Part shown: positions 7,640 through 7,825 of the stretch, one piece after another
How positions within the stretch are numbered: the first letter of the stretch is position 1
Layout: the number at the start of each line of letters is the position of its first letter
Origin: Escherichia coli
GTDB lineage: Bacteria > Pseudomonadota > Gammaproteobacteria > Enterobacterales > Enterobacteriaceae
Length of the DNA: 30,887 bases
Assembly: GCF_003334765.1 (NCBI RefSeq)
Contig: NZ_QOWT01000041.1
Direction: 5' to 3' (one strand)
The notes under the pieces: generated by a model
Databases searched by the model: none
What the model was told of the DNA's origin: nothing
What the model saw: the letters and a program-made list of their open reading frames with translations, nothing else
Made by a program: the position numbers and the translations under genes

Positions 7640-7825
7640 AAGTTATCCTTACAATGTGTTTATCGCTTGCTAAGCATCGAGTGCGACGGAAATGCCAGAA
7701 TAGCACTCTCCTGCATACACGCACCGATAGCCACTTTTTTTCGCCCCCCAAATGTAGACCAGACGGGGGGCGAAAGGGAAGACTCCAGGTACGACAAATC
7801 AGGCGTTAAATCACGTTTTCTGGTC

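Follow-up and report, generated by a model that had tools for sequence, protein, structure and literature searches.

The closest described counterpart of the element analyzed here is the hupA promoter itself, which was reportedly mapped by Kohno et al. in 1990 and by Claret and Rouviere-Yaniv in 1996. Expression of hupA has been reported to be FIS-activated, growth-phase-regulated and early-exponential, and the sRNA RaiZ represses hupA via its 5' UTR; it was the RaiZ literature that led us to the start site discussed below. In E. coli and Salmonella, the promoter known as hupAp occupies the same locus as our element, the published Salmonella 5' UTR starts within the 3' arm of our repeat, and the cloned fragment is active. 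We found no substantive difference between the hupAp of the literature and the element here. Complementarity between spacer and discriminator is unmentioned in the hupA promoter literature covered, a body of papers outside which the 1990 and 1996 mapping studies lie. Matching the sequence itself against published text returned only grouse primers, which are unrelated, and literature searches on hupA and yjaG yielded no account of the anatomy of this promoter.

Among sigma-70 promoters with a G+C-rich discriminator, those of the rrn P1, fis and tyrT type, which respond to supercoiling and ppGpp, share several features with hupA: a stretch between −10 and +1 that is G/C at five of six positions in hupA, a non-optimal spacer (18 bp in hupA), a weak −35, growth-phase regulation and activation by FIS. 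Unlike these promoters, hupA has G and not C at −5 of the discriminator. The rrn P1 spacer is typically 16 bp, and that of hupA is longer. The element also resembles an intrinsic terminator in that a G+C-rich stem adjoins a homopolymer A/T run, but it differs in having the T-run on the wrong side on both strands, a loop of 13-15 nt and no mapped 3' ends.

The window analyzed in this study is a 30,887-nucleotide stretch of the E. coli core chromosome. It carries yjaG upstream of hupA on the same strand, with an inverted repeat, CGCCCCCC-N15-GGGGGGCG, between the two genes. The parts of the repeat, as read from the sequence, and the flanking genes are as follows.

7735..7741, plus strand: T7 run
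7742..7749, plus strand: CGCCCCCC arm
7750..7764, plus strand: 15-nt spacer between the arms
7765..7772, plus strand: GGGGGGCG arm
8416..7826, minus strand: yjaG CDS (DUF416), upstream gene, same strand as hupA
7639..7367, minus strand: hupA CDS (HU-alpha, 90 aa)

The initial annotation had described an 8-bp all-G:C stem at 7742..7772 (plus strand), about 100 bp upstream of the hupA start codon. Both statements held: the distance from the stem to the hupA ATG is 103 bp, and the stem is even longer than described, with 11 perfect base pairs between TTTCGCCCCCC (7739..7749) and GGGGGGCGAAA (7765..7775) and one extra closing G-U pair beyond them. Folded as minus-strand RNA, a 61-nt segment containing the element reached −27.3 kcal/mol (z = −4.0), and none of 200 shuffles was equally stable; for a 51-nt segment the values were −24.4 kcal/mol and z = −4.6. 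We then counted all-G:C perfect 8-bp inverted repeats with a 3-20 nt loop in dinucleotide shuffles of the window. The expected number was 0.13 per shuffled window, with at least one such repeat in 9 of 100 shuffles, and the actual window contains two, the element upstream of hupA and CGGGCGGC-N12-GCCGCCCG at 3324..3351. The inverted repeat is confirmed as real and somewhat above chance.

A G+C-rich intergenic palindrome of this kind might belong to a dispersed REP/BIME-like family, or might be a chance repeat without a role, given that an all-G:C 8-bp repeat appears in about 9% of the window shuffles. We regard this explanation as scarcely credible. REP/BIME elements have many copies per genome, but the 301-nt stretch around the repeat (7600..7900), for which copy number was counted, is present at ≥95% identity in 5421 of 5426 complete E. 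coli genomes, with a median of one place per genome, always in the yjaG-hupA interval; the arm pair itself, counted within the window, is single copy. In addition, the repeat has a fixed position in an intergenic region of constant length across 73 species, and its conservation is far above the third-codon-position level. Among 80 Enterobacteriaceae loci collected using YjaG as query, the yjaG-hupA spacer is 186 bp in 73, and a few others differ by one base in either direction.

We next consider transcript ends. Read on the minus strand, the stem runs into A7, and on the plus strand the T7 run precedes the stem and AAAGGGAAG follows it; therefore, neither strand offers a stem with a U-tract. 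The terminator scan made no call at the element, its sole call being the hupA terminator at 7339..7318. The element corresponds to K-12 4200145-4200185, a position obtained by offset from the hupA ATG at 4200281 and checked on two listed sequences. Term-seq data list no 3' ends at K-12 42000xx or 42001xx on either strand under three conditions, and the nearest ends on the hupA strand are at K-12 4200251/4200253, 4200389 and 4200605 (Adams et al. 2021, PMC7815308). The element thus has neither a U-tract directly after the stem nor mapped RNA 3' ends, and the initial annotation was right in its strand logic when it denied that this was a classical terminator for yjaG.

The same data bear on the proposal that the hairpin acts as a 3' stabiliser, in which yjaG mRNA, after read-through or Rho-dependent termination, would be trimmed back to the G:C stem, which would then block 3' exonucleases. 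The E. coli stem is very stable (−24 to −27 kcal/mol, z about −4), it lies 54 nt past the yjaG stop codon on the transcribed strand, and yjaG is without a recognisable intrinsic terminator, all of which fit this proposal. That Term-seq, in three growth conditions, lists no 3' end at the element or close to it argues against this proposal, as it does against a terminator, although low yjaG expression may explain the missing ends and weaken that argument. Another role for the hairpin would be as an insulator: formed in the nascent RNA, it would pause or release polymerases reading through from nfi-yjaG, independently of a U-tract, and so spare the hupA promoter from occlusion. It would form only in read-through RNA and is located exactly over the promoter, as such a device should be, but there is no U-tract, no 3' ends are mapped to it, its stability is unconserved, and there is no need to invoke such a mechanism. 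We give the insulator only a very slim chance.

Two observations on transcript ends concern other parts of the locus. The hupA intrinsic terminator (7318..7339) falls within the 5' part of the yjaH CDS as annotated (start 7354/7360), and the hupA 3' end is classed in the Term-seq data as 'internal' to yjaH. Either the true yjaH start is further downstream than annotated, or yjaH can be expressed only when the terminator is read through. The 3' ends at K-12 4200251/4200253 correspond to window positions 7669/7667, inside the hupA 5' UTR, 30/28 nt before the ATG, and border the RaiZ pairing region on its upstream side. RNase III or other processing, or premature termination, could have produced them.

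The transcription start of hupA places the element in a different light. In the design of Urban and Vogel, pXG-10 constructs are said to begin at the mapped transcription start. The sense primer of the Salmonella hupA 5'-UTR pXG-10 fusion begins with GCGAAAAAAGTGGCTATCG (Smirnov et al. 2017, PMC5391140, Appendix Table S2), and the Salmonella 5'-UTR sense primer continues after the T7 promoter with GGGCGAAAAAAGTGGCTATCGG (Smirnov et al. 2017, PMC5391140). The construct start, GCGAAAAAAGTGG, equals the final three bases of the hairpin 3' arm plus the A-run, which puts the hupA +1 at about 7744. In E. coli, the "hupA-5'" RNA is 110 nt, with the AUG shown in the figure (Stein et al. 2020, PMC7367173). 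Counted from the G at 7746 to the end of the AUG, the distance is exactly 110 nt, in agreement with the length of this RNA. Taken together, the Salmonella primers and the 110-nt E. coli RNA suggest a hupA +1 at about 7744-7746, inside the 3' arm, the E. coli position being an extrapolation from the Salmonella primer design and the in vitro RNA length. A start near K-12 4200198, which we take to be listed in a database, was given no weight. We found no start at the hupA locus in the TSS supplements of Kim 2012, Cappable-seq or SMRT-Cappable-seq.

With this start as reference, the two arms fall on either side of a −10 box, and the following promoter features can be assigned.

7780..7775, minus strand: −35 hexamer TTCCCT, 3/6 against TTGACA, 18 bp from the −10; from alignments
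7774..7757, minus strand: 18-bp promoter spacer, including the hairpin 5' arm CGCCCCCC (7772..7765); from sequence and position between −35 and −10
7756..7751, minus strand: −10 hexamer TACATT, within the hairpin "loop"; from invariance and spacing to +1
7750..7745, minus strand: discriminator TGGGGG, the main part of the hairpin 3' arm GGGGGGCG (7749..7742); from sequence and position relative to the inferred start
7744..7746, minus strand: inferred hupA transcription start, G at 7744 with about 2 nt uncertainty; from the Salmonella constructs and the 110-nt RNA
7741..7735, minus strand: A7 run (plus-strand T7), +4 to +10 of the hupA mRNA and no terminator tail; from sequence and the Salmonella start
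7744..7640, minus strand: hupA 5' UTR, about 105 nt; from the inferred start and alignment
7818..7797, minus strand: conserved upstream block with a CRP-like left half-site; from invariant columns in alignments A1 and A2

TACATT has the A at position 2 and the T at position 6 expected of a −10 box, and its last base is 7 nt upstream of the inferred +1 (G at 7744), within the usual 6-8 nt. The −35 hexamer, at 18 bp, lies within the 16-18 bp upstream of the −10 that such hexamers occupy. The E. coli −35 is weak (3/6), and the promoter scan of the window left the E. coli hupA promoter uncalled. In Kluyvera, Erwinia, Pantoea, Dickeya and others the orthologous −35 is TTCACA (5/6), and the scan of the Kluyvera locus (L033) called TTCACA-18-TACATT at the orthologous place. 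The discriminator, at 5/6 G/C, is as G+C-rich as the class of stringent or supercoiling-sensitive promoters calls for. In E. coli, lacZ is driven by a cloned fragment, termed 'hupAp', that runs from CGTGATTTAACGCC (CGTGATTTAACGCCTGATTTG) to the ribosome-binding site (PMC6047807); this fragment contains the whole element and is larger than it. In our judgment, the inverted repeat is probably the core sigma-70 promoter of hupA, comprising spacer, −10, discriminator and +1. On this reading, the element is the already known hupA promoter, an ordinary mapped feature and not an RNA element. The initial annotation had also called it a possible structural element of the hupA promoter region, which was correct as to the promoter location but not as to an accessory structure, the element being the core promoter itself.

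We also weighed TGCTATTCT at 7705..7697 as an extended −10 of the main promoter and dropped it, because only Escherichia has A at 7701, the base being T in nearly every other genus, and because the motif is downstream of the published UTR start. As an observation in its own right, the Escherichia A at 7701 creates this extended −10-like motif (minus strand, 7697..7705) inside the hupA 5' UTR, about 50 nt before the hupA ATG, where, judging from the motif, it might serve as a second promoter specific to this lineage.

We then compared the conservation of sequence and of pairing among relatives. Mean pairwise identities over 73 Enterobacteriaceae species were as follows.

−10 box TACATT: 1.0, in all 73 species
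Hairpin loop: 0.998
hupA 5' UTR: 0.973
A-run: 0.97
Hairpin 3' arm: 0.91
Hairpin 5' arm: 0.86
hupA third codon positions: 0.84
yjaG third codon positions: 0.61

The loop is more constrained than the stem, which is the opposite of what a functional RNA hairpin would display and is the pattern of a −10 box between less critical segments. The −10 TACATT is also unchanged in Cronobacter, Erwinia, Pantoea and Dickeya, and the A-run is interrupted in the last three. We examined covariation in 12 pairs across 59 distinct Enterobacteriaceae sequences (alignment A1) and found no compensatory changes; paired cells made up 82.3%, compared with 82.5% in shuffles. A G to A change at 7747 disrupts the central C-G pair in 24 of the 59, with the partner C unchanged, and the outer U-A pairs are lost in 30 and 43 sequences. 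The minimum free energy of the orthologous 51-nt segment has a median of −15.2 kcal/mol and ranges from −24.4, in E. coli and a few others, up to −7.6, and the versions of Dickeya, Cronobacter and Kluyvera are no more stable than shuffles (z −0.3 to −1.4). A search of Rfam at permissive E-values returned noise (mir-4716 at E = 5, rli48, HOTAIR_3) and no family match.

The spacer C-run is mostly kept within Enterobacteriaceae. In Erwinia, Pantoea and Dickeya it has decayed to CGCCCCCAC, GGCCCCCTC and CGCACCCTG with no matching changes in the G-run, and these genera retain TTCACA, the 18-bp spacing, TCTGGTCTACATTTGG, the G-rich discriminator and most of the UTR. The decay of the C-run without compensation, together with the retention of −35, −10 and discriminator, argues that selection acts on the promoter sequences and not on the ability to pair. 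Neither compensated pairs nor a stem under stronger constraint than the loop, as in a conserved structured RNA, was found, and by these comparisons the element appears not to be a selected RNA structure. The initial annotation had held that lack of conservation in relatives would speak against its element; when checked, the sequence proved to be extremely conserved, but the pairing did not.

These results also complete the case on the 3' stabiliser for yjaG mRNA suggested in the initial annotation, which finds no support in Term-seq ends, covariation or conserved stability. Stability falls to −7.6 kcal/mol without compensation in relatives that are otherwise alike, the loop is more conserved than the stem, and the hupA promoter accounts fully for the element. 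We consider trimming of yjaG mRNA to this stem improbable.

The repeat is centred on the −10 box, which invites a further explanation, in which a supercoil-driven cruciform, or a hairpin in the opened strand, hides the −10, and HU binds the extruded form and thereby autoregulates hupA. HU binding to cruciform DNA is described in the literature. Autogenous control of hupA was reportedly found by Kohno et al. in 1990, which would also fit. A 13-15 nt loop, however, makes cruciform extrusion energetically unfavourable. Moreover, the central pair is a C-A mismatch in 24 of 59 sequences, the outer pairs are often lost and uncompensated, and outside Enterobacteriaceae the C-run decays but the promoter is retained. 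Such a switch is, in our view, highly improbable. The missing covariation, the broad spread of stabilities and the full explanation that the promoter provides weaken all four alternatives. Since the C6 and G6 runs are strongly conserved within Enterobacteriaceae, comparison alone leaves room there for a role of their complementarity. That it is functional in Escherichia and its closest relatives, as an HU-recognised cruciform or hairpin or as an RNA hairpin insulating against read-through, has in our estimate only a small chance of being true; if it were, an HU-recognised, supercoil-driven structure would imply structure-based autoregulation of hupA.

Returning to the core promoter, we propose that RNA polymerase would read the element as double-stranded promoter DNA of hupA on the minus strand. 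The hupA mRNA would start inside the 3' arm and retain only GCG of the stem plus the A-run. Carrying only the last three stem bases, it could not form the hairpin, which would be possible only in rare yjaG read-through transcripts. The complementarity of C-run and G-run is most likely a by-product of two G+C-rich segments flanking the −10. Clamped between these blocks (C6 of the spacer and G6 of the discriminator), the −10 would be hard to melt, and the clamp, together with the long spacer and weak −35, may make opening rely on negative supercoiling and on activators, and perhaps also on growth-rate signals. The early-exponential, FIS-activated expression of hupA is consistent with a promoter that is hard to open. 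Judging from its composition, the hupA promoter may depend on supercoiling and ppGpp; our search of the literature on hupA with discriminator or ppGpp found nothing specific. A G at −5 of the discriminator is said, in work by Haugen et al. of 2006, to stabilise open complexes, which complicates a 'stringent' reading of the hupA promoter.

The regions on either side of the core promoter are also conserved. The hupA 5' UTR is near-invariant over the 73 species and is recognisable in Erwinia, Pantoea and Dickeya. The published RaiZ/ProQ pairing occupies its last ~30 nt (7669..7640) and accounts only for those nucleotides, and the constraint on the first ~75 nt goes beyond that explanation. In one Dickeya locus (L081, ~1919..2040), an insertion of ~122 nt, which we take to resemble an ERIC/IRU enterobacterial repeat, interrupts the conserved 5' UTR. 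In E. coli O157:H7 strain 9.1_Anguil (L085, 2694..4075), one of 5421 genomes, an IS3-family element lies inside the hupA 5' UTR; its insertion point corresponds to about window 7708, ~36 nt downstream of the inferred hupA start, and it puts ~1.3 kb between the native promoter and hupA. Upstream of the promoter, AAAACGTGA (minus strand, 7819..7811) is invariant from E. coli to Dickeya and belongs to a CRP-like candidate site centred at about −63.5 from 7744 or −61.5 from 7746. Compared with the CRP consensus by eye, its left half (CGTGA) matches well and its right half poorly. The CRP control of hupA described in the literature may act through this candidate.

The correct label for the element is therefore the core promoter and 5' UTR start of hupA, not an RNA hairpin or terminator, and beyond this relabelling it is of little importance. 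It serves as a caution that a G+C-rich promoter can yield, as a by-product, a predicted hairpin of striking stability (z about −4), and it illustrates the comparative signature by which a promoter can be told from a hairpin, namely an invariant loop, variable arms and no covariation. Although not new in kind, the G+C clamp that appears to hold the −10 box of the gene for a supercoil-constraining protein would offer a testable lead on supercoiling homeostasis.
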